Source: Chrysomallon squamiferum (Eukaryota; Animalia; Mollusca). Taken from it: a stretch of 64,000 nt of DNA. The notes beneath the pieces were generated by a model. That model was not told the origin of the DNA. It searched no databases and saw only the letters and a list, made by a program, of their open reading frames with translations. This document shows, in pieces, positions 6,340 through 61,841 of this stretch. Each line of letters starts with the position of its first letter. The first letter of the stretch is position 1. The stretch lies in contig CM022675.1 in assembly GCA_012295275.1 (NCBI GenBank), forward strand, positions 1,736,001-1,800,000, in the 5' to 3' direction. The position numbers and the translations under genes are program-made.

Positions 6340-11420
<5,081 letters not shown>

Positions 11421-11614
11421 GGATGTTTATGTGTATGCGTGTGTGTGTGTGTGTGCGTTTGTGTGTGTGTGCGTTTGTGTGTGTCTGTGAGTGTGCGTTT
11501 GTGTTTGTGTGTGTGTGTGTCTTGGCATTGGTATCTCAATGTATGTACGCGTGCAAAATATGAAAATGAAACATTTATTACTTCATTTAATTATATTTGT
11601 ATATGTATATATAT

Positions 11615-11714
<100 letters not shown>

Positions 11715-11937
11715 TGAGAAAGAGTCAGAGAGATTATATATATATGTTTAGCAATTACGTACAAGGTATGAAGTACAGACAAACTGATTGGATGTTGAAT
11801 TTATTTGTAAATATGATTTCATTGATGCAGTATTTCTGAATGTAGACGCAGTAAAATATTGTCATGGGGTCAACGTCGTTACTTTAATATCAACTGATGA
11901 AACGGGGTGGTACATCTATCAGAATGGTGAGAGAGGC

Positions 11938-12420
11938 TCAGAGAAGTGTGTGTGCAGGAGTAGCGTCAATGACAGGAGTTCATCGCCGTCTCATGCTTCT
12001 ACTGACAGCGTTAATCTCAGGAACAGCAATTGCGTGATCTGTTTTACCTCCATCATGAACTCCGGTCCAGACCGTGACGCTGCCATCGGCCTATCTGTTA
12101 AGATGAACGACGTTGTCTGCATCATTTCGTTCTCCCATCCCCTCCATACATGACGCCTACCATCCACAAAGTGAACACAAAACTGTATTCGTCTGTGAAT
12201 ACTGTCTGATTCCACTGTGTGCGACACCAGTGTTGGTGTATTGTGACCCATCTCAGACGTTCCTGAATGTGACGCGCTCTCAGGGTAACAACTACAACAG
12301 GGCGACGTGCTTGTAATACAGCAGCACGGAGACGGTAACGGACAGTTTGAGCATGAATTATAGTGCCTGCGACGTCGTGAACGCGTTGGCCGGCATTAAG
12401 CCGTTACATTGCTTCATGGC
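11938..12420 (-). mobile_element. Decayed, internally deleted Tc1/mariner (Tc1-type) transposase
   Basis: Minus-strand translation across frameshifts: IHAQTVRYRLRAAVLQARRPVVVVTLRARHIQERLRWVTIHQHWCRTQWNQTVFTDE / FCVHFVDGRRHVWR / GER..GSVTVW, then the C-terminal RSMRRR*TPVIDATPAHTHF*. This matches the Tc1 motifs (W..V.FSDES.F..DGR..VWR; SM..R..AVI.A.G..T.Y). TIRs were not resolved. Confidence 0.88.
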
Positions 12421-12593
12421 TTTCATTTTCCCAACCGAGTCTGCACGTGCAGTAGATATACCGGCGTGCACTGTGACAAATGTGTTACTTTCATTTCCCA
12501 AAGCGACATGACACATACAGCTAACAGATTACCACGTTTTATCACTTTATTTTAACAGAAATGGTGTTGGCAGCGTTAGAGCTAGTAGATACG

Positions 12594-12653
<60 letters not shown>

Positions 12654-12672
12654 CTCATATACACACAGATTA

Positions 12673-12705
<33 letters not shown>

Positions 12706-12913
12706 AACGTACATACACACAGACACACATATAACACATATATACACACATATACACACACATATACACAGACACTCTTACATAACTACGTACATACATA
12801 CATACATACATACAAACATAAAAGCATTCATGCATACCAACTTACAAACTTATTATTATCTGCTATCCGATCTTACTCTGTCATTAGACATAATCAGCAA
12901 ACACACGCCCACA

Positions 12914-12948
<35 letters not shown>

Positions 12949-14044
12949 GGTAAATGAAATATAAAGGTGCCTGAATTAACTAATGTAGCTGAAAGATGAT
13001 ATGAATGTTTTGTAAAATACAAACAAAATTGCAGGCTGTTATATAAACAGCTAAAATAGTCTTAACCATTTAGTTTAAGAAATAAAAAGAAGTAAGAAAC
13101 AGTTGAAAACACGTATGAAAGCAGCATGTGTGTTCAGCCAACTGAAACGAGTATGTACTGTAAGGTCGGTAGGAAACTTTACACGTAAACAAACGTAAAA
13201 TGTAAAATGTACAGTGAAGCCTTCTTTAATCACTTTCTTTAGTAGTAGAATAGCAGCACTAGCAGTGATAGTAGTAGTGTCAACAATAGTAATAATAATG
13301 TTAGTAAGTAGAGTATTAGCAGTGGTAAAATCAGTATATATAGACAGTATTTACAGTTATGATGTGAGAATTAGTATTAATCTAATACTAGTAATAGTAG
13401 GAGTAGGAAATACTCAATAGCGCCTCTATTTTTGGAGAGCCATACTATTTTGAACTGTTTTTTTACAGGTATTGGGAAAAGAGATAGAAGGGTATATATA
13501 TATATATTAGACTGATGTACAGCGGGAGAGAAACAGAAACATGTACACATGCATAGATAGACAAACAGTTATAAAGCAATTATCTGACAATCTACCTTCG
13601 TTCCTTTTATTTGATTAGCTTATTTTTAGTTCATTTAATTGTTTAATTATAATTATTGTTGTTGTTGTTGACGTTGTTGTCGTTGTAGCACTTAGTAATA
13701 TAACAAAACGAGAAACACGTTGTGCACGGTGACTCTTCCAGTCATTACAGAGGCTCGCTTACCCAAAGCTGCTTGTGTATAAAAACTGGGTATGTAACAA
13801 ATGTTAATAGTCCTCACGTGTTTAGTATCTTTTGTTAGACGGACTGAAACACGTTGTTATAAATGATAATTGCAAAAATAAACTTTAACGTTCATTGCTT
13901 TTAACCCACTGTTGCTCATTACAGACTAATACAGACTGTGGACATTTAAAAAGAAAGAACACTTTCTTTTCTGTCCACACTTCAGTTAACATTTAGCAAC
14001 TGTGAGAGTGACGGTGAAATACAGCGTGAACATTGGCATGCACA

Positions 14045-14102
<58 letters not shown>

Positions 14103-14348
14103 CATATGACGTATTTCGTATTAAAAATCGTACGAGAAGAAACACTGGTTGTTTTCACGATATTAAAATTAATACTATTACGTTACACAGACAAATATAT
14201 GAAGTGGAAGCCAAAAGAAGACTGAAATTACGTTAAAACGAACAGAACAAATATCAAACAAATAAATTCATAGCAAAATTAAATAAATAAATAAAATTAT
14301 AAACAAAGATAAAGAGGTACAAAAATACTGAGTTGTAGAGAGGAATAC

Positions 14349-14465
<117 letters not shown>

Positions 14466-14493
14466 TATGATGCAATAGTTAAACCAGTTATTC

Positions 14494-14595
14494 ATTGGAC
14501 AAGATGGTTTCTTTGTGCTTACCATATAAATACAGCTAAACACATCGTGAGATGCAGTTTTATGTTTTATTCTAAACACATTGAACTGTGTAAGT
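14494..14595 (+). promoter_or_regulatory. Putative core promoter and short non-coding first exon of the EGF-ZP-SRCR gene
   Basis: ATTGG (inverted CCAAT) at 14494, TATAAATA at 14525-14532, Inr-like GCAGTT with A at 14556 (31 nt after the TATA), donor GTAAGT at 14590. The module is duplicated upstream of the paralog at 46577-46678. Confidence 0.5.
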
Positions 14596-15989
14596 GAGGA
14601 CAAAGCTTAATTTGTGAGTGTCACAAGAAACAAGGTAGGTTCACGTTACCTTACTTGAGTTAATATGTCTGTGTTGTCTGTACATTATCATGCATCTGAC
14701 TTTATCAAATGTATGTGTGTATATTCTCTATGTAACAAAAGACGTATCAGCAGATTTATTATTACCTCAGTTCTTGATTTTTGTTTATGCTGAGGCTGCT
14801 GTTGTTCAGTTCTGCAGTCTAGTCTTAACTGAGAGTAAAACAAAAGAATTCAGTTTTAAATAAATAATAATTACCAAGATATGCAAAAATCATTACTGCA
14901 TGAAATTTAAACTGACAGTAAACTGTAAAAAGGGTGAAAGTGTTTTTGATCTGATAAAATCAAAGTTGATGATGCAGATAGCTACAGATATCTTGGTATT
15001 AATTGCGTGTAAAAATAAAGTTCAGTTCAGACTCTCGTACACATTTTTGTAGTCAGGTATGTACTACATGATTTACTTTCGAATGGTGATGACAAACATG
15101 TAGGCGACATCCTAAATTAGAAATAATTAAAACGATTGATAAAAAAGATAAGAAATAAAATCATGTTGTAAAAATAATATAATATGTAAATTATGCGTAA
15201 TTTTGATCAGCTTAATGCAATATAATTTATACATATTGTAGCAAATCTAAAGACTTTTTTACTAAATTATTATTCAAAAAGAGAATTATGTTTGTTCAGA
15301 TAGAAAGATATTAAATCCCAGGTGAAAAAAAGAAACAAAAAACGCCGCCTTTTTATTTATTCATTATTTATTTATTTTTTATTTTTTATTTTTTATTTTT
15401 TTTTAATTATATATATATATATATTTGATTTTTTATTATTTTGATCTTTTTTTAACATTTCCAGATAGTTAACAGTATCTAGTCCGAATCTAGCAATGTT
15501 AAAGTTTTTGAAGAAATCTTATTTCCAGGGATATCTGTATCAAATCTGGACCATCCAGTTATCTTTATAAAAACCTTAATAGAGACAGACGTAATAATAA
15601 TAATAATAATAGTTAATTTAATAATGATTTTTGTTTGTTTGTTTTGTTGTTTTTTTTCAAATTCTCTATATTCATATTCTACATATGTGTATTGTGTTAG
15701 AGTAAATCCACAGTCGTATTATGATTATATTAACTTGTGTATGTGCAACTATGGATTCTTACTGACTGAAACTGAAACTAACAGAAAACTCTATGTAAAT
15801 ATGTATGTCTGGCTGAAGGAATGGCTGTATGTATGTATCTCTGTGTGTAGGTATACATCTATACATGACGCATGTGTTACAGGGTTTATGTATAGTAAGC
15901 CTTTTCTCTTCAACTTTTTTCAATTATCCTTTGTTTTCAGGTAGAAAAAAAGTATTTTAATGATTTTTTTCATTTGTTTTAATTATTCT

Positions 15990-16036
<47 letters not shown>

Positions 16037-16559
16037 TTATTATTATTATTACAATTATTATTATTCATTTAGTTACTTTTTGTTTTCATTTGTTTTTGTC
16101 TTTATTTATTTATTTATTTATCTTTCTATCTATATACGTGTCTTTCAATCTTTCCTTTCGTCCATCGTTGTGATTGTTTGTTACCAGAAAACAGCAGCCT
16201 TGTCCGCCAGCATCATTTACTTAAGTTGTGCAATTACAGCAATAGTAATGGTAATATATGTATTAGAAGTAATAGTAATACTAGAATAGCAGTAATACTA
16301 CAAACCTTCATACCTACGTTTTATCATATGCCCATCTGTCTAGTCATTTATCTACATATCTACGTTTTTTATTGTATTCTGTTCTTCTTTACTTTAGTTT
16401 AGTGTTAATTATATATTTTTTGAATTATTGTTTCTACTTTTATTTATTTTTTCTCTATTATAAAGATTTATAAGAACATTTGTTTGATTTTATTTATCCC
16501 GTAGTCGAATATAAATAACACGATATATTTGTTGGAATTCTGTTTGCCCATCAAAGCTG

Positions 16560-22700
<6,141 letters not shown>

Positions 22701-22951
22701 ATACTTTACAGATATTTTTAATTGTGCTTTTGAAAATATTAAGAAAAGAGACTCAAACATCGTCCTAAGATTACGTAACTCTTGCAGGTGTTACAATTGT
22801 AAGTCTCTCATTTGTGTGTAGATAATAATACATCGAATCTTGTAGCTTTTGTTAGACATACAAACAGTTTTACCTCGAGACATCTCAGTCTACTGCTCTA
22901 CGAAAATGCTTCACTGGTCGTGTATGGCTTGCTGTTTGTTGGCTTGTATTC

Positions 22952-23001
<50 letters not shown>

Positions 23002-23479
23002 GTGTGTGTGTTGTGTGTGTGTGTGTTTTAATTTTCTTATGGCATTAATATTTTACGATAAAAGCAGTTCATATTTTGTCAGTGAAATTTTAAAACTGTT
23101 TTGAAGAAAGTATTAAGAAAACTAGTTTGACAACGTTTGACTAGATTGTTGTAGTGAACTAATACAAACACACTTGCGATGCCTCACTGCTCATCTACAC
23201 TATTACACGTCTTCCACGCTGTGTTTTTCACTCGCTTGTTGTACGTCAACAAACAGATATTATCTGATATATTAATGTTTTTATTTTATTATTTCTTTTC
23301 AGTCTCGATTGTTTTAACTTAAATATAATAATGTGCGCGACTTTATGTATGTATGTCTGTGAGTTTGTAATAATAATAATAATAATAATAATAACAATAA
23401 TAATAAAAATATTTTTTTTATGACATCATAAAGTTTCTGCGTAGATTGTGAGAGCTTTCAGACTGTACTCAATACTTTG

Positions 23480-23930
23480 AACATACATTACGACGTTAAA
23501 TTAAGCTTGATGCTATCTATGTTCTGACGTATATACACATTATCTCTGCGGGTGTTTGGGTGTGACACAAAGCTGTATTTTCAGATGAATAGTGTATACA
23601 CTATTCAGAAGAAAAAAAGTTAATTTTTAAAATATATCTCTCAGCCAGTGATCTTTGTTATAATTCTATTTCTTTGACGAGGGCAGCTTAGCTTACTATA
23701 CATTTTTGAATATATATTACGAAGTTAAATTAAACTTGATGCTATCTATGTTCTGACATATATACACATTATCTCTGCGGGTGTTTGGGTGTGACACAAA
23801 GTTGTATTTTCAGATGAATAGTGTATACGCTATTCAGAATAAAAAGTTAGTTTTTTATATATCTCTCAACCAGTGATTTTTGTTATATTTTAATGTCTTT
23901 GACAAGGGCAGCTTAACTTACTATAAAATA
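23480..23930 (+). repeat. About 230-bp tandem duplication of a dispersed repeat
   Basis: CTTGATGCTATCTATGTTCTGAC..CTCTGCGGGTGTTTGGGTGTGACACAAAG occurs twice, with diverged relatives at about 5360-5500 and 6600-6720. Confidence 0.8.
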
Positions 23931-24681
23931 TTTGTATACGTTTCTACAGCTGCCTTACACAAGATATTTACTTACATTTTTTTTTAAAAACCTGTTTATA
24001 ATCATGTCTTAGAAGTGAAAATTGTTATCGTAAACACGATTCTGCTGTCTGTTTTAACACAGAGGCGTACATAAATATAATACACAGATGCACAGAGACA
24101 AACACACACACACACACACACACACATATATTTTGCATATGTCCAAACTCACAGACACATACGCAACCATGCACACATACACTCATACACGCATAAATAC
24201 ATATCAGAATCTTGTTGTTCAATCCATTTTCGATAAATGTCTATCTATCGATATGTCTGTCTCAGCGTCTGTCTGTCTGTCAATCTATCTACATGTCTAG
24301 CTCTATGTCTCGCTATTTATCTCTTTATCTCTATATATATATCCATCGACCTATCAATTTTCCATCTATCTGCCTATCTATTTATCTATCTGCTCTCTAT
24401 GTGACCTCTTATTTGTCTATTTATTAATCTTATTTTTCTTTTTTTACTTTATTTTGAGTCCAAAATATTTTAATACAAGATCTATATGACCAAACTAAAC
24501 TTTCATAGATATTCCAAATTGTACTGAAACCACCGAAGATTTACCAGTGTATACTTTGTCTTACACCAACCTGCACTATTCCAAACGTAATGTTCATCAC
24601 GTTTATATGAGGATGCGTTTTGTGAATACATTTCTGCCTTTTCTATAATGAAATTATTTCCTTCGTTCGTTTCATTAATTA

Positions 24682-24732
<51 letters not shown>

Positions 24733-25764
24733 GTTTGTATGTTTGTTTAAGGATGAAATTTGTGAAACGCTTTGAACGAAGTATGAAGAAACGTGACTCG
24801 TTTGACATCTCTCTGATTAGGGTCACAAACCTTTAAAAACACGTGTAACACATCACTGCTCATCTAGACTAGTACTCCGCACTCACAACAAAACTCGCTG
24901 TTTTCTTTCACTTGTCACGCATCAACTAACAGATGTTTAGGAGTTTCTGACAGCTTTTAACCTTAAAGGTATCCTACATCAAGAAATATAAAACAAATTA
25001 AATAAAATATGTCTGCCAGTCATTATTTCTGACTGATTTTAACCTTAAAGGTATCCTACATCAAGAAATATAAAACAAATAAAATAAAAATGTCTGTCAG
25101 TTTACTGACATATTCAGAGAGTATTTATGACAGTATATCGATACTCATTTGTGTACTAATTTAAACACCCAGAAACAAGCACATTCACACTCTTCTACGA
25201 ACTAAAATAAATACAAATATACCCATTTAAACCACATACGTATATATGGACAGACGCTCATAGAGAAACATAATTATCAAACATAAACATACAATATAAT
25301 AATCATCACTCAACTCAACCCACCTACACACACACACACACACATACACACACAGATACACACAGACACATACATGCATGTACAACATTATACACATACG
25401 GAAACATACACTTACACACATTAACACCCCCATCCACATTCACAGACAAGCAGATACATAGGTAGATATGAAACAAAACTCACTGGCACATACATTTATA
25501 TACACATAGAAACATAGATAGATATATACAGACGTGCACTGGTACAGGAATAAATACACACGTTTACACAAATATATCCACGCACACACTTACACTCAAA
25601 TATCTACACTTATATGCACACATGCATGCATGGATAGAAAAATCTACGCACGCACGCATCAGGTAAAGGTAAACCCGTACCTCAGACTACTAAATTCAAA
25701 GAAATAAAGAAAGGACAAACCCGCGCGAAAAAAAAAAAAAAAAAGAAGCAAACACTATGTATAA

Positions 25765-26135
<371 letters not shown>

Positions 26136-27599
26136 CGTAAGACGCAGCTATCCCTCAGTTCTTTGTTAGAGAAGAAAGAAAATAAAAATGACACTGGACT
26201 TGGCTGGTACGTATTCAAGCACGGACACTGACGTCTAGTGCTCCAGAAACACAGATACGCATGACTGGCAATACATAGTAAGTTTTTTGGAGAAAGAAGA
26301 AAGCTTATATTTGTTGTTGCTTTTAATGTTAATTCTCGGACACAAGTACCGGCATATATAAAATTATCTGAGCACACATACATACATATATACATAAACA
26401 CATACAGACAGTATACGTTTTTGGAAGGACGCTAGTTATACAGAGGTAATGAATGTCAAGAATAAATAATCATCTTATTTGTCTAGGCTTTCGTCAAAAC
26501 ATATATATATATAGATAGATAGATACATAGACAGATAGATAGATGTTTTTAATTGGTATGTTGTTCAGTTGATATATTGTTGTTATATTGTTATTGGTGT
26601 TTATATCGTTGTTTATATGACTTACATCATTGCAAGTTGCAACAGCACTAGCAACAAAAGTAGTTGTAGTACTAGTTGTTTTTATCGTCTTTGTTCTAGT
26701 AATAATTGCGCTCAGTCTACTTTTCAAAAATAATTTAACAAGCTTAGATTTCAAACAAATAAAGACAACAAATTATAAAGCAAAGAAGGAAATAAGCAAA
26801 GAAACAATACAAAGAAGAAAGAAACAAACAGAAAGATAAATGAATAAACAAATAAACAAGAAGAAAGAGAAGAGATAAATGAAAAGTTTCGGTAACACTA
26901 GTGTTGCGCTTCACACACAATCAATTTTTTATTTATTTTTCTTAGTTATGATATAAATAGAGCAGAACTCATTTTATTTAATTTTTATGTAAATATATTT
27001 CTTTCCAAACAGATCACACAGTGTAAGAGAGGAAAACGGTTTACTTGCAGTGTTACAATAAACAAGGTACGTGCAGTTCATCTTTATATATATATGTACG
27101 TTTATTACTTCGGTGAATGTATGTGCACAGTTTCTATGTATTTTATGTATGGTACGTAAATAAATGTATGTGGATATTTCCATATATGTGTATATATGCT
27201 ATATGAATACATGTGTGTACAATTTCTGTATATGTGTATGTATGCCATGTCAGTAAATGTATATGGACACTTACAATGTATTTGTAAATATCCTACTTCA
27301 AAAATGTATGTATTCCTTCTGTACATTTTTATGCATATTACTACTTAAAATAAATGTCTACACTATCTATATACTTGTACAGGAACAAACATATGTGTGT
27401 GCGGGCGTACATTTGTATGTACGTTTATTCAGTGAATGTGTGCTTACATGTCCAGATTATTTACTTCGGTAAATGTGCCTGTTTGCCGTCTTCACATTTG
27501 CAGGAACATCACTTTACATACATCTACGCTTTATTCATACGTAAGCACGTTATTCAGTGGATGAGTGTACTCACTTTTCTATACATTAGCACACATTTT

Positions 27600-31813: not shown

Positions 31814-32360
31814 ATGTGGATATCATTCGTCTATCTGATACTCCTAAGTTGTTCCATCACTCTAGGTAACTTTATTTTCGTCTCTGTTTCTTTATAGAAA
31901 TATTATATGCGTCAGTTCTCACAAAAAGAATGAGAATTTGAATATAGATAGTTCACACAGTGGAACAAAATATTTATAAAAAATACATCATTCAAATTAT
32001 AACATTAATATTTTAGAAATAATTCCTTTAAATGACGATATGTATTTGTTTTACATATATATATATATACCACGTATTTAATTACTTAAGTCGTCTTGTT
32101 CCTAACCCTAGTTCTCTATCTAAAATATATTTTAAAAACTATACAATTCAAATAAAAATAAATAAATAAATAAATAAATAAAAGAAATCAGAAACAAAAA
32201 TTTTGATTACAGTAATTTCGATATGCTTTCTTTATTTCATACTCCTCACAACATTTGTGATACTTAGTGGTTTTCTTTACATTATTCTTCCGAATGTCTA
32301 TTCTCTTCTATTTTATTATTATTATCATCATCATCATCATCATAATCATCATCATTATCA

Positions 32361-32438
<78 letters not shown>

Positions 32439-33274
32439 CTACTAACTCTATTGGAATTTAAACTAAAATCTCTCACCGTATATATTTCTTGTTTATTTTA
32501 TTTAATAGCATGTTGTACTTACTTACAGGTGATGAGTACTTCGACTGCAGACGACAGGGTCAGGATTGTGCTAATAATAAAACTTGTCAAAATGACGGCA
32601 CCTGTGACTGTGGAAATGACTACACTGGCTACAGCTGTGAGCTGGAGACAAGTCAGTATTCTAATTCTAATATGTCAAGTGTGGGTAACAGCAATGATAT
32701 CATCAAGAAAAAGCCAAGAAGGTATAGACAGATTTTTTTTTTAATTGTTTTTATTTCATAACAGATATGAAATTTGTGTTTCCAGGTTTGAGTGGTTCAA
32801 GTCCGTGTACCAATCAGACTGACTCTTGTGGCTCTGATGGAGGTATCTGTTACAACAATAATGGAAACAAGACGTGTTTCTGTCCTCCTGGTTTCTATGG
32901 TGACAGCTGTGAAAACAAAAGATGTGAGTAATTAATTCTACTTAACAACATAATACTTATTTTAATATCTTACACTGTTTTTATGTAGCAATGAAGGGTA
33001 GATGATATTCCAATTGTTTTCAGTATGCTCATTTATTATATATATTTACTGTACTTTTCACCTCCCAGGAAAGTAATATGAAATAAATAAATAACAAAAA
33101 AGTATAATAGTAACATATTATTTAAGTTTATAACAGATTTAAACTGTCTCACTAAACACAGTCAGATTCATCATCTGATTTGAATTAATCTGAAAGGAAG
33201 GTTAATGTTATTATTTGATGTCAAATACGCATTATTTCATGTTGAATGTCTATTATTATAATTAGTAGTAATAT

Positions 33275-33348
<74 letters not shown>

Positions 33349-34274
33349 CCATCATCACAATCATGTTGATTATTCCTGCTAACAAATACTAATCTTAATA
33401 TTTTAGATGAAGTTACCTGTGAGAAAAGTTCTATGTTGATTGTTATTAATCCTGCTGGAACATTCAGTGGTGTCGTCTATGCTAAAAGTGGAAAAGACAC
33501 GCCAAACTGCAAATTCACGTCATCAGTTCTACCATCGGGAAAACAGGGTGTGGGTCTCAATGTTAAGGATAGTGACTGTGGTGGGGTGACTCAGGTCAGT
33601 TCTTTATATTATTCATATTTTACTCTTTTTTTCTTAATGAACTATGTTTAAATACTTAGCTACTTCCATAAATTGTTTGAATAAATTAGATTTAAGTTTT
33701 GTGCATTTGTGGAATTATAATATCTGAGAAAATTGTTTTTAAAAATATTTCTTTTTATCTTTGTACAAAGTGGTATTAGACATTGACTAAACATAACTTG
33801 TGTAGATCTGACTCTTTCTTAAGGTAAATGGAGGTCGAACTCGAGATGTGATGATTCAGTTCAGTGAAAAGTACATGACAAACCTCGACACAAAAGTCAC
33901 TGTCACTTGTAGTGGAAACAACAACGATGCCGTAACCGTGACTGTCACCAAAGTGATAACAACCAAACAAACTGAAAGGTTCGTTATAAATATTATTATT
34001 ATTATTTTTATATTGTTCTTTCTTTCCTGCAATGTATATAAGTTTACTTACAATTGTGGTTACTACTGTCGGTAATGATGATGTTATTTCACAGAGACAC
34101 ACTGAACATCACAAACACAGTTAACTCAATAGACTCCTCGCTTGTCCAGTTCAACATCAACCTCAAAGACGGGTCTTCAGTTTCAGAATCAGCAGCTGTA
34201 TCTTTAGATGAAGAACTTACATTTGAGTTTATTACAAGTAGGAACAAGTTGTTGTTTCCATAGTTTTCTTCATT

Positions 34275-34324
<50 letters not shown>

Positions 34325-37300
34325 CATAATAATCATAATAATCATAAAGATAATAGCTGTCATTAACTAATTCAAATTCGCATCATCTTCGTATATTTTT
34401 ATTTATTTTTTATTTTTTGGTACTTTAGTTTTATTGCTTATTTATTAATGTATCTATTTTTTATATTCTCAGACTTGACAGCAGAGGTACCAGAAAAGAT
34501 TGACGACATTGAACCAGGTAAAACATATATATGTACTAGATTATAACTACAGACTTTAATTATTTACTTTATGTTTCTGAATTGTTTCAGTGTTTAGTCT
34601 TGACTTAAAACTGTCGACTTTCTCATTTTCAAACTACTCACAAACCGTTTCTAACGAATTCTTCCAAATTTCGCATGAAGATAATTTTCCTATCGGTTAT
34701 TATAAATGTTTTTTTTTTTTTTTTCTATTTCATTATAAGTGAAAGTTCGTCTAGTTGGTGGTAACACAAGTAAAGAAGGTCGAGTAGAAGTTTTGAACAA
34801 AGGTAAATGGGGCAGACTGCACAGTGGTCGTTTCTCCTACTACGAGGCCACTGCAGTTTGTAGAACTCTGGGTTTCAACAAGTAAGTTAACAGCAAATAG
34901 TTCTGATTCTTATTGTAGCTCTACCTTTCTGAGTCCGTATTTTCCAGTATTATGAAAGGAACTTTCTAAATGAAGAAATATAAAATAACGTCGAAGTAAA
35001 AATATATAAGAGAAACAATTGTGTGCGTGTGTGTATGTCTACAAAAGAAGTAATAAAAATAAACATAAAATAAAGAAGTAAATAAATAAATGAATTAATA
35101 AATACATAAAAATAATATCGTGTGACGTGTATGTTAACACTGTTCCTACAGTTAAGTGTCTATCCTACAGCGCGTTTGGTATGCCACGTGGTAAAGGATT
35201 CTTCCCAGAAGGAACTGGACAAATTTGGAAAGGTGATTTATTCTGTCTTGGATTTGAAATGGACGTAGATCGTTGCTATAAATGGATCATTACTGACTGT
35301 GGTGATGCCTGCACTGGAGAAGATATTGGACTGATATGTGACGGTAAAGAAATATTATTGTTATCATCTTCATCATCATCATCATCATTGTTATCATTAT
35401 TATCATCATAATTATTGTTGTGGCTGTTCATTGATCAAGAATAAACTTTGTGTTTTATTCCACTATAACAGAAAACCCTGCTCCATACAAACTGAGACTG
35501 GTCGGTGGAAACAGCACACAGGAAGGAAATCTTCAAGTATTTGATGATGGCAAATGGAATTCAGTGTGTAACACAAATGACTCTGAGAAAGTAAACTCCT
35601 GGGTCGACTGCCGGCAAATGGGTTATGCAGTGTTAGTAAGACTTTCTAAATTTAAACGTTCAATTGTAAAAATAATAATAATAATAATAAAAAAAAATAA
35701 AAAAAAAATAATAATTAATGGTTGTTGTTGCAGTAGTAACAGCAGTAGTATAGTAGTAGTACTAATGTTATCGTAAATACATACATACGGGCAAGGCCAC
35801 ATACACACGTTTAAATATACATAGAAAATATATTGATATAAATTTCAACATTTGTAACCAAAACGGTTATTGGTTAAATACAAATTTCCTGTGTTACTCT
35901 GATATTTGTTTTACGACTGTGGATCAAAGCTATCATTGTGAGTAAACGACATCTTGTATTTTACTTCTTATTATTTATGATTTTTGTTTTCAGCAGTGTT
36001 TGCTTTTCTAATTCTACACACTGTCCTACCACTGAGATATATTTTTGAATAACCTTTTAAATTTAACCTGCGTTTCTTCACAGATCATCAGTCTATAAAT
36101 CTGAAATAATTACTGGAAATAAATGGAAGTATGAGTTTATCAGCCTCGGTTTTGAACCTGCTGTGCATTTGTCTATTCTCAGACTTCGGAATGAAGAGAG
36201 TGAATGTCAATCTGTACATATTAGGTGTTCAGGTATTAATGTCAGTTACGTTTACTGTGTTATGTTCATCTGATAACACCATCGACTTCTACAGAGAAAA
36301 CGATTTACAATAGAAGAAAGGTTCACGTTGTTATATGTTTTTTATCAACCTGTCAAATTGTCAAATTCAGCAACTACGAAAAACATCAACATCCAACTAC
36401 ACAATACACTCTTATTATAACTATAACAGCTGTTTACTGCAGACGCCAAAATAAAAATAAATAAATAAATACATAATAATAAGCAATGTATATATGAAGT
36501 ATACCAAAAAAAAAAAAAAAAAAAAAGAAAGAAATGAATGATTGATTTCAGTTTTATGTTTATTTTCTAGTGGACATATCAAATATTGAATTACGACTAG
36601 TTGGTGGTCCAAGCAGTAACTACGGTGTAGTTGAAGTGAAAATAAACAATGTGTGGGGCAGACTGTATGATGATTATCCTACGTCAACAGTTGCTAGAGT
36701 TTTATGCAGAACACTTGGATTTAACGAGTAAGTAGAAACAGAACGTAATATTAAAACAGTTAAATATCACTTGAAACCATGTGCTAATGCTAATAAAGCT
36801 AATAATGATGATGATGATGACGATGATGATGATGATAATGATAATGATGATGATAATAATACTACTACTAATAATAATAATAAAATGACATCCATAATAA
36901 CATTTAAACTGATATAAAAACTGATGCAATTACTCTATATAAACTGATTTATATTTTATCTATTTATTTAAAGAAGTTATAAAGCAATATTACTGAGTGA
37001 GCGTGAGCATAATCTGACGTCAAGCAACAAAAAGATTTGGACACAAAGGGTGTTTTGTTCAGGACTGGAAAAGCGCATTAATGAGTGCTACCTTGAATAT
37101 AGTGAAAACGATGATCATGAGAAGTACACAGCCCTGCTGTGTTCAGGTAATGTGTTTTAGACAGCTGTCACTAAACATCTACCACATGTTTAATCATTTC
37201 TTCTATGGAGAATAACATTCACTGTATTAGAGACAAAAGACAACGAAATTAATAATGTGATAAAATCTAAGTGAAAAATTGTGTGTATGTGTGAGATGAC

Positions 37301-38387
37301 AAGAAATTTTAGTTTGTTATAGGCTTTTGTTTCTTACTGCAGAGGATAAAGCCGAAACTGAAATTCGTCTGGTGAATGGCAGTTCAAAACGAGAAGGTCG
37401 AGTAGAGATTAAATATCTTGGAATGTGGGGCACAGTCTGTGATAAATTTCATACTGATTACAACGCAGCTGTTTACTGCAGAATGCTGGGTTTTAAAAAG
37501 TAAGTTATTAATAATGATTATTATAACAGCTGTTTACTGCAGAATGCTGGGTTTTACTAAGTAAGCCATTAATAATGATTATTATAACAACTGTTTACTG
37601 CAGAATGCTGGGTTTTACTAAGTAAGTTATTAACAATCATTATTATAACAACTGTTTACTGTAGAATGCTGGGTTTTACTAAGTAAGTTATTAATCATTA
37701 TTATTATAACAGCTGTTTACTGAAGAATGCTGGGTTTCACTAAGTAAGTTATTGATAATTATTATTATAACTGCTGTTTACTGCAGAATGCTGGGTTTCA
37801 CTAAGCAACATATTAATAATTATTATTATAACATATGTTTACTGAAGAATGCTGGGTTTCACTAAGTAAGTTATTAATAATTATTATTATAACAGCTGTT
37901 TACTGAAGAATGCTGGGTTTCACTAAGCAAGCTATTAATAATTATTATTATAACAGATGTTTACTGAAGAATGCTGGGTTTCACTAAGTAAGCTATTAAT
38001 AATTATTATTATAACAGATGTTTACTGAAGAATGCTGGGTTTCACTAAGTAAGCTATTAATAATTATTATTATAACAGATGTTTACTGAAGAATGCTGGG
38101 TTTCACTAAGTAAGCTATTAATAATAATAATTATTATTATTACAGATGTTTACTGAAGAATGCTGTTTACTGCAGAATGCTGGGTTTCACTGAAGAATGC
38201 TGGGTTTCATATTAATAATTATTATTATAACAGATGTTTACTGAAGAATGCTGGGTTTCACTAAGTAAGCTATTAATAATTATTATGGAAGAATGCTGGG
38301 TTTCATTATTATTATTAAAACAGATGTTTACAGATGTTTTTACTTCATCATGCCGTGTTTCACTCAATTAATAATGGTTATTTATTT

Positions 38388-38442
<55 letters not shown>

Positions 38443-39125
38443 GTGTTATCAGAATAATCATATCAGTGAATAATTAAAGTAATTAGGAGTATAAAATAAA
38501 ATAAAAGAATAAATTTCACCTAAATATCTTTCCCAGTATAATATATCTAAACTTTTTATATTATTATTTTTAGCTTATAATTAATCACTCTAATCAAAAC
38601 AAAATATTTTAATTTTTAAATATATTTTTAATATATAACATGATATATTCACATTAATACTACATATTTGAGGATGCCACACCCTATGTTTTTCAGTTCA
38701 AATGCTACAGCTGTTGGTAGTGATTATTTTGGTGAAGGATCAGGACCTATCTTACTGCGTGATATTCACTGTTTGGGAAATGAAACAAGTCTTCAACAGT
38801 GTAATATTCTATGGGGTAACGTTGACTGTCAACATGCAAACGATGCTGGTGTGATATGTGCAGGTAATTCTCAACCTCTGTCAATTATTACGTTTGTAGT
38901 TTTACTAATTTTATGCTAGGCACTACCTGTATCAATTTCAACATGTGCTACTGAAAAAAAAATATTTATTTATTTATTAATATTATTATTATTATTATTA
39001 TTGTTGTTGTTGTTGTTGTTGTTGTTTTACTTATTTATTTATTTATTTGTTTATATATTTATTCGTTTATATATTTTTGTACTTGTTTATAGCTTTTTTA
39101 TATATTTTATTTTTAATTACAGTTA

Positions 39126-39178
<53 letters not shown>

Positions 39179-40878
39179 TTTCTGATGGACACGGACGCCA
39201 TTTTATTATTATCAGTAATACTGCAATCACATTTTACACTGATTATTGAGCTGTACCTTGTTTGTTTCTTACTAAAATTTGTTTCTAAAGAAACTCTATT
39301 CAAAATTGGTTCTCTCTATCAATAAATATTAAGATTTTTTTATGCTCCAAATTATTTTTAAACTTGTCTAAAATACTATTTTTCTCCAATATTATCTTTT
39401 TCTAACATGAAATAAAATGATAAATGAATGAATGTTATTTTGAGTAGTATTAAAACTTACTTATATATTAACCTGCAAAAGGAATTTCTAAAAAAATATT
39501 ATATTTAACTCCACAGTTGTATCATAGTTTTGACTACTACTCATAGCAAAGAATATAATTTTGTTTTAAATAACAACTTTGACAAGCAGTATTATTGTAA
39601 TATATTAGAAACAGAACCAGAAACAGGCACTGTCAGAGTGGAGTCATGTACTGCTGATAATCAGAAAACTGGAGAAGACAGTGAAACTCTGAAAATCATT
39701 GAAAACAGGTGATACCTTCATTTTAGCACATTTATTTCTTAGAATTTCCGTTCAATCAAACACCTAAATAAGTTGTGTTTTTAACTCGAGAGGGACTCAT
39801 TATTTCTGAAAATAATTTTTTTAAACTGTCATAATTAAATCTGAGTAAAGGGTGTCTACTTGTTCTTAGTTATTTAATATAAATAAACAATTTTGATATA
39901 TTTTAACCACTCTAAAAACGAACATTATTAATATATTCTGAAAAGAAAGTGGATCCATGTTTTGTAATTAATTATCTAGTCATCAATTTGACACCCTCTC
40001 AGAAAGTTTTAATTACACAACCAGGCACTGATGTTTCAGTGGAAATCAAATAATTAAAGAAGAATTATATTTGGTGCTGATTACTGGAAAATTTGGTTCC
40101 TTTACTCAGCTGCCCGTCTTCTGAGATCGGTAAACTGATGATACAGGAGCCTGAAAGATCAGGAAACAACGTCACATTCAAGTTGAAAGCTTTCACCTTT
40201 AACAAAAACAACGCGGTCTCTACAGAATGTTCTGTCAAAGTTTGTCCTCCAGATCAAAAATCTCTGTGTGACCCAGTAAGTTTTATCATTTCTGCTGTTA
40301 CTGTTTTTTTGTATTTCATCTTTCAACAAAGAGACACAGTTAACTTTTCCTATATAATAAAAAATGGCGTAATAAAATTATAGTTTGAGTTAAAATTTTT
40401 ACACAGAAATTTTCAATGTTAGGTGGACTGCAATGGCAAGAAAGGGTTTGGAAGAAAACGAAGATCGGCTGAAACGTCTGATGAACTTGTCAGAAAAACA
40501 TTTTCTGTTCTGGACGTGTTCGTGGAAGATCGAACATCAAGTGAGTTTATGTCAGATCTGTAGCAGTAATTTGTTTTCTTCAACTTAACTCATATTCGTG
40601 ATTAGTTTTATCAGAATAAATCAACATTAAATGCAGATTTTGTTTAATAGATATTAGTTACAAGAAAGAAAACAAGCATGTGATATTTAAAATCTTACTT
40701 CATTCTAGGTAAGAAACATGGATCTGCTCAAGTTGATGTCAACAACACGATTCTGATTGTTCTCTGTGTTGTCATGTTGATCATCTTCTCACTTGTCATT
40801 GGGATTGTGGTGGTCGTCTTCCTGAGGAAGAAAAAGTCCAGTCTGAAGAAGGAAGATGTCAACAAACACCAGATTTAG
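31814..40878 (+). CDS. Type I membrane EGF-like + ZP domain protein (molluscan EGF-ZP/ELDP/gigasin-2-like family) with four SRCR domains inserted in ZP-C; 891 aa
   Basis: Hand-spliced GT-AG exons: 31814-31865, 32529-32651, 32786-32923, 33407-33594, 33824-33978, 34095-34237, 34473-34517, 34740-34881, 35171-35343, 35472-35631, 36084-36232, 36571-36727, 36974-37146, 37343-37499, 38697-38863, 39609-39708, 40110-40275, 40423-40540, 40709-40878. Total 2676 nt, phases consistent, no internal stop. Signal peptide MWISFVYLILLSCSITLG; EGF1 YFDCRRQGQDC..; EGF2 ..CFCPPGFYGDSC; ZP-N EVTCEKSSMLIVI..; ZP-C VRVESCTA..LKAFTF..ECSVKVC; furin site RKRR; TM ILIVLCVVMLIIFSLVIGIVVVVFL. A few acceptors have nearby in-frame alternatives. 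Confidence 0.9.
34473..38863 (+). other. Exons 7-15: linker plus four group-A-like SRCR domains (two exons each), 1323 nt / 441 aa
   Basis: Starts VRLVGGNTSKEGRVEV, LRLVGGNSTQEGNLQV, LRLVGGPSSNYGVVEV and IRLVNGSSKREGRVEI..WGTVCD. The fourth ends FGEGSGPILLRDIHCLGNETSLQQC..DCQHANDAGVIC. Confidence 0.9.
37466..38340 (+). repeat. 61-bp minisatellite derived from the exon 14 / intron 14 junction, about 13-14 copies
   Basis: Unit CAGCTGTTTACTGCAGAATGCTGGGTTTTACTAAGTAAGTTATTAATAATGATTATTATAA at 37466, 37527, 37588 and onward. Confidence 0.93.
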
Positions 40879-41176
40879 TTAACCTGACCAACATTTCACA
40901 TACTGTAGTAGCAAATTGAAGTTAAAAAACTCTTTTGAATTTTATATAGCTTTTCACTTAAATTATTTTAGCTTTTGAACATTTGACTAAGCTTATAACT
41001 CTTTCGTAATTATTACTGTTTTCAGTGTTATTCTTTATTTTATTCTCATTTTTGGAACTATTGTTAATTTGTTTGCTTTACGGAAATTTTAAATAAGTAT
41101 ACATTGTTACTTCTATGACATTGGACACAACTTCGTAATCTTCTGATTTTGTTTTTGTCTTTGTCTCTTTGTTCTT

Positions 41177-49731: not shown

Positions 49732-50255
49732 ATGTGGATATCATTCGTGTATCTGATACTTCTAACTAGTTGTTTTATTGCAGTTAACTTTTTCTGTTTT
49801 CTTTTATGTGTGTGTGTGCATTCCTGTTCTTAAATAAATTATTTAAAAAGTTAAATATAATATAAAAATACATAATTTAAATAGTAAAATATGATTAAAA
49901 ATAAAAATAAAAATTCATTTTATAACAGTATTCACTATTTTATTATTATTGCTGTTGTTATTGTCGTTGTCGTCGTCGTTGTTGTTGTTTCTTCTATTTT
50001 GTTAGTTTTAATTAAATCTGTCAAAGATATACTTTCTTCTTGTTTAATTAGTTGTCAGTTACATGGGTTAAGCTATTTTAAAATGTTGTTTACAGGTGAA
50101 GAGTACTTCGACTGCAGACGACAGGGATAGGATTGTGCTAATAATAAAACTTGTCAAAATGACGGCACCTGTGACTGTGGAAATGACTACACTAGCTACA
50201 ACTGTCAGCTGCAGAAAAGTGAGTTATTGTTCTGACAAATGTTTTCCGTGATAAA

Positions 50256-50296
<41 letters not shown>

Positions 50297-51084
50297 ATAA
50301 TAATAATAATAATAATAATAATAGTAGTAATAATAATAATAATAATGGTAATAATAAACAACTTAAGAAATTTATCTAAACTGCAGAATCACAAATTTGT
50401 GTTTTCAGGTTTGAGTGGTTCAAGTCCGTGTACCAATCAGACTGACTCTTGTGGCTCTGATGGAGGTATCTGTTACAATGATAATGGAAACAAGGCGTGT
50501 TTCTGTCCACCTGGTTTCTATGGTGACCACTGTGAAAACAGAAGATGTGAGTTATTAACTTCGATTATAATAACAAATAATGATAACAATAATAATAATA
50601 ATTATAATAACAATAACAACAACAACAATAACAGTAAAGCAAGTGTTCACTTTGTTTATGATAAAAAGTAATATGTTTATATCAAATTATTTTTTATGTT
50701 TACCAACGAATATCAGTATTTTTAATTCCTATTTCATTATATGAATTTTAACTTGTATTCCAGTAGCTGAAATATAATTATATACATTTGATTGTGTAAC
50801 CATCAGTCTATATTTATATTCAGGATTAATATAATAAGGTTAAGAATTTCAATCACGTACTTCAGTTTAATTTTAGGGAAGCTTTTCTATTGTTCTGTAT
50901 TATCCTTTAAACTAATGCTTATTTTTGACAGTACAAACATTTATTTGGCTAAAATTATTGGCTTGTTTGTTGCTGTTGTTTGTTTTGTTGTTGTTGTTTG
51001 TTTTGTTATTGTTGTTTGTTTTGTTATTGTTGTTATTGTTTTTGAGTTGCTTTTCATTTTTTTATTTTTTTCCATCTGCAAGAA

Positions 51085-51134
<50 letters not shown>

Positions 51135-51205
51135 GTTATATATCAGCATTCACTTAAATTCATTCAGTCGTTTGTTTTAAATATTATTACTGTTACTATT
51201 ATTAC

Positions 51206-51269
<64 letters not shown>

Positions 51270-52385
51270 GTTACTGTTCTTGTTGTTATTGTATATAAAT
51301 ATAAATCTATTTATTTCAGATGAAGTTACCTGTGAGAAAAGTTCTATGTTGATTGTTATTAATCCTGCTGGAACATTCAGTGGTGTCGTCTATGTTAAAG
51401 GTGAAAAAGACACGAAAGGTTGTACGTTCACACAGTCAGATCTACCCTCGGGAGAACAGGGCGTGGCTGTGAATGTTCAGCATAGTGACTGTGGTGGGGT
51501 GACACAGGTTGTTTGTAACTATTTATTGATTTATTTTAAGTTTTTTTTTTTTTTTTTTTTTTATATAGCTTTTCTCCGCTCCGTATATATTTATTTGCCT
51601 GCGTTATTTCTTTAAATAAAATATACTTTTTTTCTTTTTTTTTTGTGAACTTTTACTCTCAGAAAAAGCCTTAAGAAAAAACAGATTGCATTTTTTTTCT
51701 GTGTACAAAGCAGTATTTAAATAGTATTGAACGTAACTAAAGCAATTGTGACTCGTTTTTAAAGCTAAATGGAGATCGAACTCGAGATGTGATCATTCAG
51801 TTCAGTGAAAAGTTTATGACAAACCTCGACACAAAAGTCTCTGTCACTTGTGAGAAGAACGATTCTGCTACAACTGTGACTGTCACCAAAGTTATCACAA
51901 GCGAAGATCTTTTCCTGTTAGTCACTATTTTTGTTTTATTTCAGTTTCAGACTGTAGTTTTCCATAGTATTATTAATAATACATGTAGTAGTCGTAATAG
52001 GAGTAATTTGCAAACTGTAATATCTATATATACATATATATTATATATTATATGTATATATATATCTTTGTGTTTTGTCATTTAGTTTTATTTACTAGTT
52101 CATTAGCAGAATATTGTTTATATTAAAACGTTATAAATGTTAATTGTTAATATGCAGCTAATATTTGAAAACGTATGACAGTAGTGCATTTTATGAACTG
52201 ACCTCATAAGCCAAGAAATAAAACCATTGGTTATAGTGAAGAAGAAAATGTGTATATTGAAAGTGTGAATATTAATCTTGTTTATGATATTATGTCTTAA
52301 GTGTGTTTGTTTCTAATGCTATTGTGCAGAAACAGACAGAATATCACAAACACAGTCAACTCAACAGACTCCTCGGAATCAAAAA
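49732..52385 (+). pseudogene. Tandem paralog of the EGF-ZP gene (signal peptide, 2xEGF, ZP-N), disabled and truncated
   Basis: Exons 49732-49783, 50096-50218, 50409-50546, 51320-51507, 51765-51916, 52330-52385. The first donor is TT (49784-5) where the paralog has GT. CAG>TAG stop at 50128-50130. No ZP-C, SRCR or TM exons were found downstream on + strand. Confidence 0.88.
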
Positions 52386-53582
52386 GTAAGTTAATAACAA
52401 ACAGATCTGATTTTTCTCTAATAAACAATGTACTATATTTGCTAACACCATCATCACCACTACAATGTAACTGTAATAACTGTTACAACATCAAAAACAT
52501 ATTTCTAGTAAATATGTATGTATAAACACACAAAGCAGATACTTGTTACATATACATACATTTAAATGTATACGTACACTATCTGCTTTGTGTGTGAATG
52601 GACGTGCATCGATTGTATTTTTCTGCTGTTTGATAATTTCTTAATCATTGCCCTCCAGTGTGGTTAAAAATTCATTTCAGTTGAATGTATCAGTATTAAT
52701 ATTCAACAGGCACCAAATAAAATGACTAGATAGGAAGTTAACGTAAATAAACGAAAACTTAATAAAATTCTTCGTATACACCTACATGGTATGTATAATA
52801 ATGCATTTAACACTAATATTAAACATGAGCTAGTTAGACAAATAAATTGGTTTAAAGAGATTACTGAAAAAGCTAGTTAGACAAATAAATTGGTTTAAAG
52901 AGATTACTGAAAACACAAGTTAATGTTATAAGATCATAGAATTTCGTTACAGTGTACTTAACTGTTAATGAGAACTGCATAACGTAACATATGTCTCAAA
53001 GTATTTACTGTCTTTATATGTTTGCTTCGTATCCCTACGTTTCACAAAGTATAAACGAATATTACATTAATTCCTCAAGAGAACTGAGAAAGGAGAAAAT
53101 TAACAAAAGGAAGAACAAAAAGAATTACAATAAATCCAAGAATATAGGAGAATACAATGTTTTAAAGAAGCATTATGTAATACTGGAAATATATAAATGA
53201 GAATAAAAAAGATTTTATTGATGTCAGTATAGTAAATATTTATCTAAAACGATATAGCTTAAAACATTGTTATATCAACTATATTAAATATATAAATAAA
53301 ACTATTTTTTATTAAAGAGAGAGTAACTGTATTTAGTTAAGTATTTATTTAGCGTCAGAAGTTGAAAATCTTATTTTGTGAAGTACAAGTATGAAGAATG
53401 AAAAAAGTCCAAGGAAGAAGAAATGACTAATTGTTTTACACGTTCTGTATTTGAGAAGTAAATTCTGAAATGCATTTGAATATAAGGATCACACAAATCT
53501 CAAGCACATTTAGAATAAATTTGCACTTATGTTACAATTAAATTTCTGTGTTTCTATCCACCAGCACGTAGGGAATGGGAAT

Positions 53583-54795: not shown

Positions 54796-55192
54796 GAAAA
54801 AAAGAATAAATAAGATAAAATATGTAAAATTTAAAAGAAAAAAATGACAAAAAAAAAAAAATATATATATATTAATAATTAAAAAAAAGAAAAAAAAAAA
54901 AAATAAAATTAAAGCGCTGGCAGTATTGCCTCGATGACAATTTCACCTTAAACTGCAGAAAAAAAAAATGAAAAAAAGAAAAGAAAGAAAAAGAAATAAA
55001 GAAAAAAAATCAAAAATCCAAAAATAATAAAAGAAAAGAAAAGAAAAATAAAGAAATAAAAAAAGAAAAATAAAGCGTTGGCAGTATTCGATCTTGTTGT
55101 TCTTGTTCTTCAAAGAAAGAAAGAAGGAAAGAAAGAGAGAAAGAGAGAAAGAAAGAAAGAAAGAAAAGAAAAGAAAAGAGAAGAAAGAGGCG

Positions 55193-55311
55193 TGTCTACG
55201 GCACTCGGTGTTCCCAGGCGGTCACCCATCCAAGTACTGTCCGAGCCCTGCGTTGCTTAACTTCGGTGATCGGACGAGAACCGGTGCTTTCAACGTGGTG
55301 TGGCCGTAGAC
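55193..55311 (-). rRNA. 5S: 5S rRNA gene (single copy, orphon-like)
   Basis: GTCTACGGCCACACCACGTTGAAAGCACCGGTTCTCGTCCGATCACCGAAGTTAAGCAACG..AGTACTTGGATGGGTGACCGCCTGGGAACACCGAGTGCCGTAGACA, 119 nt. Helix I is perfect, A/C boxes look intact, and a T-rich tract follows downstream. Confidence 0.96.
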
Positions 55312-60907: not shown

Positions 60908-61552
60908 TAATAATGATAATAATAATAATAATAATAATGATGATGATGATGATGAAAAAGAAAAGTCAGCACATCAATGAAAGTTAAGGAGTAGAATGTC
61001 TATAAAATATCGATACTCCTTTATCATTTAACTTTAATTTTCTGCAGATTTCATTTTCTTTTCTTTTTTGTTTTTCATTTTGACAGCCTACTACAGACAA
61101 TTAATGAACAATATTCTCTCACGCGATAATACAAGTGAAATGCTGATGTTTGTTTTTTTCTTTTATTTTTTATTAATTTATTAACTTATTTACTTATTTA
61201 TTTAAATAGTGCCTGAAATGATATCCATTAGGGTGTCCTTCAAGTTTTCAAATAAATACTACTATTACTACTACTACTAACAATAATAATGGTACTACTA
61301 CTAATAATAATAATAATAACAATAGTAAAACATTAACCTTTGTTTTCTTCTGTTTTCTCTTTGTAAGCAATATATCATGTGATTCCATGCAACATTACGA
61401 ACCAGAGTGTAAAACAACAAGAAAAAAAACAACCAAAACCCTGTGTTTATTAAATAAAACAATTAATTAAACTATCAATTTACTGGAAACTAAACTAATA
61501 GTTTTAACATAAATACTGAACAGGTTATAATTAGAACACGATGTAAACTCAC

Positions 61553-61641
61553 AGAAGACGGTGATGAAGAGCAGGTTCCAAACCATCACACTTAACGTCA
61601 TCCTTCCATACATTCCTACTAGTAACACTGCGACCAACAGA
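61553..61641 (-). other. SRCR-like exon fragment abutting the gap
   Basis: Minus strand reads SVGRSVTSRNVWKDDVKCDGLEPALHHRL followed by donor GTGAGT. It fits the SRCR pattern IWLDDV.C.G.E..L..C with the last Cys as CGT. Confidence 0.5.
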
Positions 61642-61841
61642 NNNNNNNNNNNNNNNNNNNNNNNNNNNNNNNNNNNNNNNNNNNNNNNNNNNNNNNNNNN
61701 NNNNNNNNNNNNNNNNNNNNNNNNNNNNNNNNNNNNNNNNNNNNNNNNNNNNNNNNNNNNNNNNNNNNNNNNNNNNNNNNNNNNNNNNNNNNNNNNNNNN
61801 NNNNNNNNNNNNNNNNNNNNNNNNNNNNNNNNNNNNNNNNN
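61642..61841. other. Assembly gap (200 N)
   Basis: N run. Confidence 1.

Follow-up and report, generated by a model that had tools for sequence, protein, structure and literature searches.

In DMBT1/SALSA/hensin, where an array of SRCR domains and a ZP module are joined in one secreted protein, the SRCRs stand before an intact ZP module, and more widely the extra domains of ZP modules usually lie upstream of the intact polymerising core. Lophotrochozoan LZP1 likewise joins SRCRs to a ZP module, in the order signal peptide, SRCR, intact ZP, transmembrane helix (PMC9290575), and uromodulin carries its binding domains as a branch N-terminal to ZP-N (PMC7737619). The molluscan EGFZP proteins of the shell matrix, among them LUSP-17 of Lottia, PfuEGFZP of Pinctada and EGF-like domain-containing proteins 1 and 2 of Haliotis, comprise a signal peptide, two EGF domains, ZP-N, ZP-C, RKRR and a transmembrane helix; a furin-type site RRRR or RKRR between ZP and the transmembrane helix is a criterion for the group, and the accessible text of their description mentions no SRCR or PAN domain inside the ZP domain (PMC9290575). 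Here we analyse a gene of Chrysomallon squamiferum, the scaly-foot snail, within a 64,000-nucleotide stretch (contig CM022675.1, positions 1,736,001 to 1,800,000; hereafter the window, with positions counted from its first letter). It is homologous to the EGFZP proteins over its whole non-insert length, has the RKRR site and, like them, occurs in tandem copies, but its ZP-C, as read from the alignments below, carries a cassette of four SRCR domains between strands B and C.

The gene consists of 19 exons on the plus strand (31814-40878). An original prediction, made by a model from the letters alone, had proposed four SRCRs inside the ZP-C of an EGF-ZP protein; all of its exons exist, have GT-AG ends and splice without a stop. 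Splicing by coordinates gives an open frame of 889 aa with the signal-peptide exon 31814-31865, or 874 aa counted from exon 2, and the domain order is signal peptide, two EGF, ZP-N, linker, ZP-C strands A-B, a 15-aa linker, four SRCR, ZP-C strands C-G, furin site, transmembrane helix and a short tail, encoded as follows.

31814..31865, plus strand: coding part of exon 1, a 17-aa signal peptide (hydrophobic N-terminus, phase-1 donor, in frame with exon 2).
32529-32651 and 32786-32923, plus strand: exons 2-3, two EGF-like domains (weak Pfam EGF matches below cut-off).
33407-33594 and 33824-33978, plus strand: exons 4-5, ZP-N with four cysteines and the interdomain linker (Pfam CUT_N, ZP-N-like, E 2.5e-5 in exon 4).
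34095..34237, plus strand: exon 6, end of the linker, ZP-C strand A (internal hydrophobic patch) and strand B, phase-1 donor (aligned to 22 intact ZP proteins and, by profile, to chicken ZPD).
34473..34517, plus strand: exon 7, the 15-aa linker into the cassette, phase 1-1 (splice model).
34740-34881 and 35171-35343, plus strand: exons 8 and 9, SRCR1 (Pfam PF00530, E 1.5e-8 and 0.0084).
35472-35631 and 36084-36232, plus strand: exons 10 and 11, SRCR2, degenerate (Pfam E 2.4e-6 in exon 10, no match in exon 11; alignment).
36571-36727 and 36974-37146, plus strand: exons 12 and 13, SRCR3 (Pfam E 8e-7 and 3.7e-5; alignment).
37343-37499 and 38697-38863, plus strand: exons 14 and 15, SRCR4 (Pfam E 9e-11 and 3.5e-11; matches in the Protein Data Bank, PDB).
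39609 or 39615-39708 and 40110-40275, plus strand: exons 16-17, ZP-C strands C-F with the FXF motif (Pfam PF00100, E 1.3e-5 in exon 17).
40423..40878, plus strand: exons 18-19, furin-type site RKRR, external hydrophobic patch, transmembrane helix, short tail and stop (motifs from the spliced model; contig junctions).

The model and its alignment keep the four cysteines of ZP-N, the six of ZP-C, both hydrophobic patches, FXF and the cleavage site, the last at aa 805 of the 889-aa model, between ZP and the transmembrane helix. When 17 exon pieces were run singly against Pfam, SRCR matches were obtained on seven of the eight SRCR half-exons, five of them above the curated cut-off. The pattern anticipated by the original prediction, a split ZP hit flanking four SRCRs, appeared in part: the SRCRs and the PF00100 match on exon 17 were recovered, while exons 6 and 16, like exon 11, gave no match on their own.

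The cassette comprises exons 7-15 (34473-38863), whose 1323 nt make the 441 codons foreseen for the array, with phase 1 at either end, and its insertion point is a phase-1 intron in the ZP-C B-C loop. Strands are named here by comparison with canonical ZP-C. The skip form, in which exon 6 is joined to exon 16, was aligned with 22 ZP proteins (intact EGF-ZP proteins plus the canonical ZP protein P0067); exon 6 corresponds to strands A-B and exon 16 begins at strand C. Against chicken ZPD (28yj_A), a family profile also aligns over the full module (E 1.5e-26), and at the break there is no sizeable gap. These alignments place the insertion inside ZP-C between early strands, as had been proposed, and put exon 6 in ZP-C and not in the ZP-N/ZP-C linker. 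Loops were scored with two small profiles (A-B and C-F parts), and both halves were scored in 49 of 94 proteins: the B-C loop has 3-13 residues in 41 of the 49 and 40-449 in the other eight, the values for the skip form and the same 22 proteins being partly by construction, as the profiles were built from them. EGFZP proteins fall in the short class, against 441 aa in the window gene, and the seven database proteins with a loop of at least 40 residues all belong to the vent snail Gigantopelta aegis.

Each SRCR is a phase 1-1 unit; if exon 7 and the four SRCR units are each either included or skipped, all 32 resulting combinations keep the frame open. The direct join of exon 6 to exon 16 likewise leaves a clean frame of 433 aa (counted from exon 2), which has 44% identity to the nearest protein, G. 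aegis P0001. This clean frame favours an explanation in which the cassette is optional or its products partial, the main mRNA skipping from exon 6 to 16 or the SRCRs being joined to one half of the gene only, and so does the fact that the SRCR-bearing gene models of G. aegis are halves. We consider it improbable. RNA of a related copy carries an SRCR end on exon 16, G. aegis P0007 passes from strand B straight into SRCRs, and the PAN-bearing paralogs P0004 and P0093 are complete single chains.

The transcript evidence comes from contigs of four of the seven listed runs, compared over 38640-40950. The joints of exons 16-17, 17-18 and 18-19 agree with the model, and at junctions 40275-40423 and 40540-40709 the contigs differ from the window by 0-1. 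A contig of run X6 (run kind unrecorded) matches exons 17-19 with 0 differences, so the 3' end of the window copy is spliced as modelled. An SRCR end is spliced upstream of exon 16 in an RNA contig of run X2 (depth 6.2, about 93% identical), with 14 of 15 nt matching exon 15; at that identity the contig's source would be a paralog or a related population. Another contig, from a related copy, joins the exon-14 end to exon 15. The predicted junction 38863-39609 is thus seen in a copy about 93% identical, but the acceptor there corresponds to 39615, 6 nt downstream of 39609, both being in frame. In run X5 the depth is 10,000-27,000 for mid-exon bins, compared with about 125-960 where intron bins are covered, which hints at many copies without being a measure of copy number. 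Taken with the comparison below, we hold it very likely that the architecture is real as one mRNA.

A profile-free HMMER search with the nearest G. aegis protein returned 83 proteins, the closest being G. aegis RefSeq models. The ZP-N half (exons 4-5) is 46% identical to P0001, and the nearest G. aegis slot paralog is 55% identical outside the insert. The occupants of the B-C slot in these paralogs are as follows.

G. aegis P0002: no insert.
G. aegis P0004, P0005, P0006 and P0093: one PAN/apple domain (recognised by Pfam in P0005 and P0006, by structure in P0004 and by cysteine pattern only in P0093).
G. aegis P0003 and P0084: two PAN domains.
G. aegis P0007: SRCRs straight after strand B; the model ends within the third SRCR.
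G. aegis P0009: an SRCR directly before strand C.
Accessions of the slot paralogs: XP_041347291, XP_041377501, XP_041373445, XP_041373053/4, XP_041371612, XP_041372195, XP_041371836.

The G. aegis paralogs share the clade and the insertion site of the window gene and differ in cargo (none, one PAN, two PAN, or three or more SRCRs); all stand under generic names, and those with SRCRs are incomplete halves. One locus yields both P0006 and P0084 as isoforms, carrying one PAN domain and two respectively, and the EGF layout of exons 2-3 is common to P0002, P0004 and P0007. P0001 has a 40-residue filler at the slot that holds no domain and is probably a gene-model artefact, and a short B-C loop is found in outgroups from Haliotis, Argonauta and another G. 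aegis gene. A quick tree of 35 rows, computed without the inserts and containing almost no other ZP families and no LZP1 sequences, unites the window gene with nine G. aegis rows in a single clade (SH-aLRT 100); it settles neither the branching within that clade nor its sister group. A search with residues 20-330 of P0007 gave 59 matches, four G. aegis proteins at about 80% coverage or more and 55 ordinary SRCR proteins. P0004, used as query in a word-index search, matched nothing but itself, which reflects the limits of that kind of search. From these alignments the B-C loop reads as a family-wide slot with differing cargo, a point that the original prediction had missed; as for other molluscs, which it had proposed to search, the same slot is occupied in G. 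aegis, but the complete SRCR version is present there only as halves. We also noted P0036 (685 aa), which holds two EGF-ZP modules in tandem, with two CUT_N and two ZP-C stretches by Pfam.

No description of a whole domain inside ZP-C was found in the open-access literature, subscription papers being outside the search. One paper mentions insertions in a ZP-N DE loop and in the ZP-C AB and FG loops, and in the accessible text none is a whole domain in B-C (PMC7456536). A 'bc loop' discussed in 10.1101/2023.06.21.544075 belongs to ZP-N and not to ZP-C. The view that the architecture was undescribed holds for that literature but not for databases: RefSeq models of G. aegis already show the layout without naming it, and the published scaly-foot 'DMBT1' set probably does too; domain insertion itself is a known process.

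That the gene is a true DMBT1 or LZP1 ortholog, with the upstream EGF and ZP-N exons belonging to a separate gene, would agree with the automated annotation that labels such models DMBT1-like and with the similarity of SRCR4 to DMBT1 and CD163 SRCRs. We regard this as very nearly excluded. In DMBT1 the SRCRs are N-terminal to a complete ZP, whereas here ZP-N and strands A-B precede them and only strands C-G follow SRCR4, with no ZP-N and no A-B strands found between exons 15 and 16. DMBT1 has CUB domains, but Pfam found none on the 17 exon pieces and all 889 aa are assigned to other domains. The two ZP halves align, in order, with a single EGF-ZP relative, and the ZP part groups with the G. 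aegis slot proteins. LZP1 lacks the EGF pair and forms a separate ZP clade, whereas the window gene has two EGFs and its closest relatives overall are EGF-ZP proteins of Gigantopelta, Haliotis, Argonauta and Capitella (210134). On sequence grounds, the product seems to work like a decorated ZP protein and to descend from molluscan EGFZP, and not to be a member of the DMBT1 family.

The four SRCRs share 24-39% identity with one another, so the cassette must be either ancient or evolving fast. Six cysteines are present in SRCR4, which has CD163, M2BP and DMBT1 among its PDB matches. By alignment, SRCR2 is without the central cysteine pair and SRCR3 without one cysteine in each of its two exons; SRCR1 has lost the first cysteine and gained a late one. 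Group-A SRCR domains have a defined disulfide pairing, and read against it the paired losses in SRCR2 and, across two exons, in SRCR3 would remove entire disulfides, a pattern suggestive of selection acting on domains that fold from these exon pairs. The third SRCR of P0007 is without the same two cysteines as SRCR3 of the window, at only 28% identity, through either shared cassette-order ancestry or parallel loss. Ligand binding by SALSA requires cation site 2, formed by D1019, D1020 and E1086 (PMC7043408). Mapped by alignment to bird DMBT1, and so an inferred correspondence, SRCR1 has the E only, SRCR2 none of the three, SRCR3 both D with K for E, and SRCR4 one D with N for E. The full D-D-E site is incomplete in all four SRCRs, which argues against a DMBT1-type calcium-bridged recognition. 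Within the SRCR4 gene region, a 61-bp tandem array of 11.4 copies (37466-38253) is built from the exon 14 end and its donor site, and a donor-spanning heptamer occurs in nine copies at 37498-38108, giving spare donor sites in the intron after exon 14.

Published work on the scaly-foot snail describes up to 65 tandem 'DMBT1' copies with 0-5 SRCRs, strongly expressed in the epithelium that secretes the scales and in the mantle (PMC7142155), or 70 copies (PMC7736800); both papers treat them as DMBT1, and a split ZP domain is not described in their accessible text. By our own count, Supplementary Data 2 of the latter (PMC7736800) holds 50 gene ids, the gene models being short fragments. CUB is listed in none of the 50. 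The first SRCR begins at residue 174-175 in five, and the window gene started at its ZP-N methionine would have its first SRCR at 174. The single model with a ZP hit has four SRCRs and a 77-aa hit (420-496) beginning 7 residues after the last SRCR, and in the window gene strand C also resumes 7 residues after SRCR4 (707 to 714). A partial second SRCR is found among the published models too, and among 24 of the 36 DMBT1 rows one array member is annotated EGF-like domain-containing 1. For the optional cassette, these models point both ways: only one ZP hit in 50 favours it, and the five with an SRCR at 174-175 speak against it, as does the fact that the models are short fragments. Tandem gene copies are common to this array and the window. 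From the published domain coordinates, we think it likely that the published 'DMBT1' copies are this EGF-ZP family and not DMBT1.

For the fold, two G. aegis PAN paralogs were predicted with AlphaFold as stand-ins for the window protein. The model of P0004, with one PAN domain, has a mean pLDDT of 83.0 and a pTM of 0.73; its residues 245-471 can be superposed on the ZP-C of betaglycan (Z 11.2, rmsd 3.4, 132 aligned), and residues 281-353 on the plasminogen PAN domain (Z 11.1). That of P0003, with two PAN domains (pLDDT 72.9), superposes through residues 51-359 on the ZP-C of uromodulin (Z 12.2, rmsd 3.3, 142 aligned); ZP proteins fill all of the top 18 rows, and residues 86-163 match apple domains. 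In the PAN paralogs both halves are thus predicted to form one ZP-C with the cargo outside, although AlphaFold may lean on known ZP-C structures. Uromodulin has the same ZP-C fold, FXF, cleavage site and hydrophobic patches, and the filament contacts named for it are beta-C, beta-F, the internal hydrophobic patch and the ef loop, the B-C loop not being among them in the accessible text (PMC7737619). The branch of the window protein would leave a ZP-C loop, besides its N-terminal EGFs, whereas that of uromodulin precedes ZP-N. We favour, with some reserve, the view that the protein, likely released by furin, would polymerise as an SRCR-decorated filament.

Several points weigh against this reading. 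Strand beta-C, directly after the insert, touches the next subunit in uromodulin (PMC7737619), so a bulky insert adjoining this contact strand could hinder assembly. In no database protein are strands A-B, SRCRs and strands C-G combined in a single chain, P0007 and P0009 of G. aegis being halves; this is a weak negative as the scaly-foot snail proteome is absent from the results. The SRCR-to-exon-16 join comes from a single low-depth contig of a copy about 93% identical, and the exon 6-7-8 junctions lie outside the interval compared. The pattern-recognition role put forward in the original prediction is weakened because no SRCR has a full cation site. In the supplementary file of PMC11871041, none of 20 'malignant' rows stands in the scaly-foot shell or scale protein lists, where fragmented gene models could hide peptides, while intact EGF-ZP is in both lists.

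Some of these same observations favour a membrane-anchored or shed monomer or dimer, in which ZP would be a stalk presenting the SRCRs as an adhesion or microbe-binding receptor and no filaments would form. Most EGFZP proteins likely stay around the cell surface (PMC9290575), no DMBT1-labelled protein is in the scaly-foot shell or scale lists searched (PMC11871041), and the insert adjoins beta-C. We judge this alternative unlikely, though more credible than an optional cassette. The window gene and the complete paralogs retain RKRR, FXF, the two hydrophobic patches and every ZP cysteine, and two of three G. aegis shell samples contain one protein labelled DMBT1 whose SRCR lies at 2-65, as that of P0009 does (likened by span alone) (PMC11871041).

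Considering the decorated-filament view, the following course of events may be proposed. An ancestor of the peltospirid vent snails would have had a phase-1 intron in the B-C loop, and phase-1 modules, either PAN or two-exon SRCRs, could have entered it by exon shuffling. These modules would then have been duplicated, dropped or swapped with the frame intact, while the gene was tandemly amplified. In the membrane precursor, the ZP-C halves would fold together around the cassette, the SRCRs forming a side arm from one loop, and after cutting at RKRR the protein would assemble into apical-matrix filaments with SRCR arms. Mantle and scale-forming epidermis may secrete it into the apical layer, where the arms may bind matrix proteins, polyanions or microbes with copy-specific preferences and not by the classical DMBT1 calcium site. 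We suggest only tentatively, as possible rather than probable, that the peltospirid B-C loop is an exchangeable display slot and that the roughly 65-70 'DMBT1' genes are a co-opted EGF-ZP family building filaments with diversified binding arms in the scale-making layer, where vent microbes and minerals are encountered. With room for 0, 80, 160 or 440 residues, such a loop offers a direct test of ZP-C folding and polymerisation, and is a natural site for engineering decorated protein filaments. The finding also probably re-labels the headline result of two scaly-foot genome papers, the 'DMBT1' genes becoming a redeployed shell-matrix EGF-ZP gene, and this, if true, shifts the debate on immune versus biomineral roles.

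Elsewhere in the window, a further copy and several repeats were found.

49732..52387, plus strand: broken tandem paralog with exons 1-6 only (85-95% nucleotide identity to exons 1-6).

Its exon 1 resembles exon 1 of the window gene, and it has lost the exon-1 donor, has a stop in EGF1 and ends exon 6 before ZP-C at a new donor; no later exons were found for this copy. On the minus strand, 61552-61641 is a stop-terminated fragment like an SRCR's second half; it adjoins a 200-N assembly gap (61642-61841) and is perhaps a third copy. Positions 1-40 and 560-600, also on the minus strand, are 83-90% identical to the exon 6 start, within a tandem duplication of about 560 bp cut by the window edge. 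The minus-strand sequence 55188-55310, recognised by eye, we take to be 5S rRNA-like. Multi-kilobase duplicated segments at 6321-11420 and 16673-21722, with 82-95% identity, are probably repeats or a local segmental duplication.

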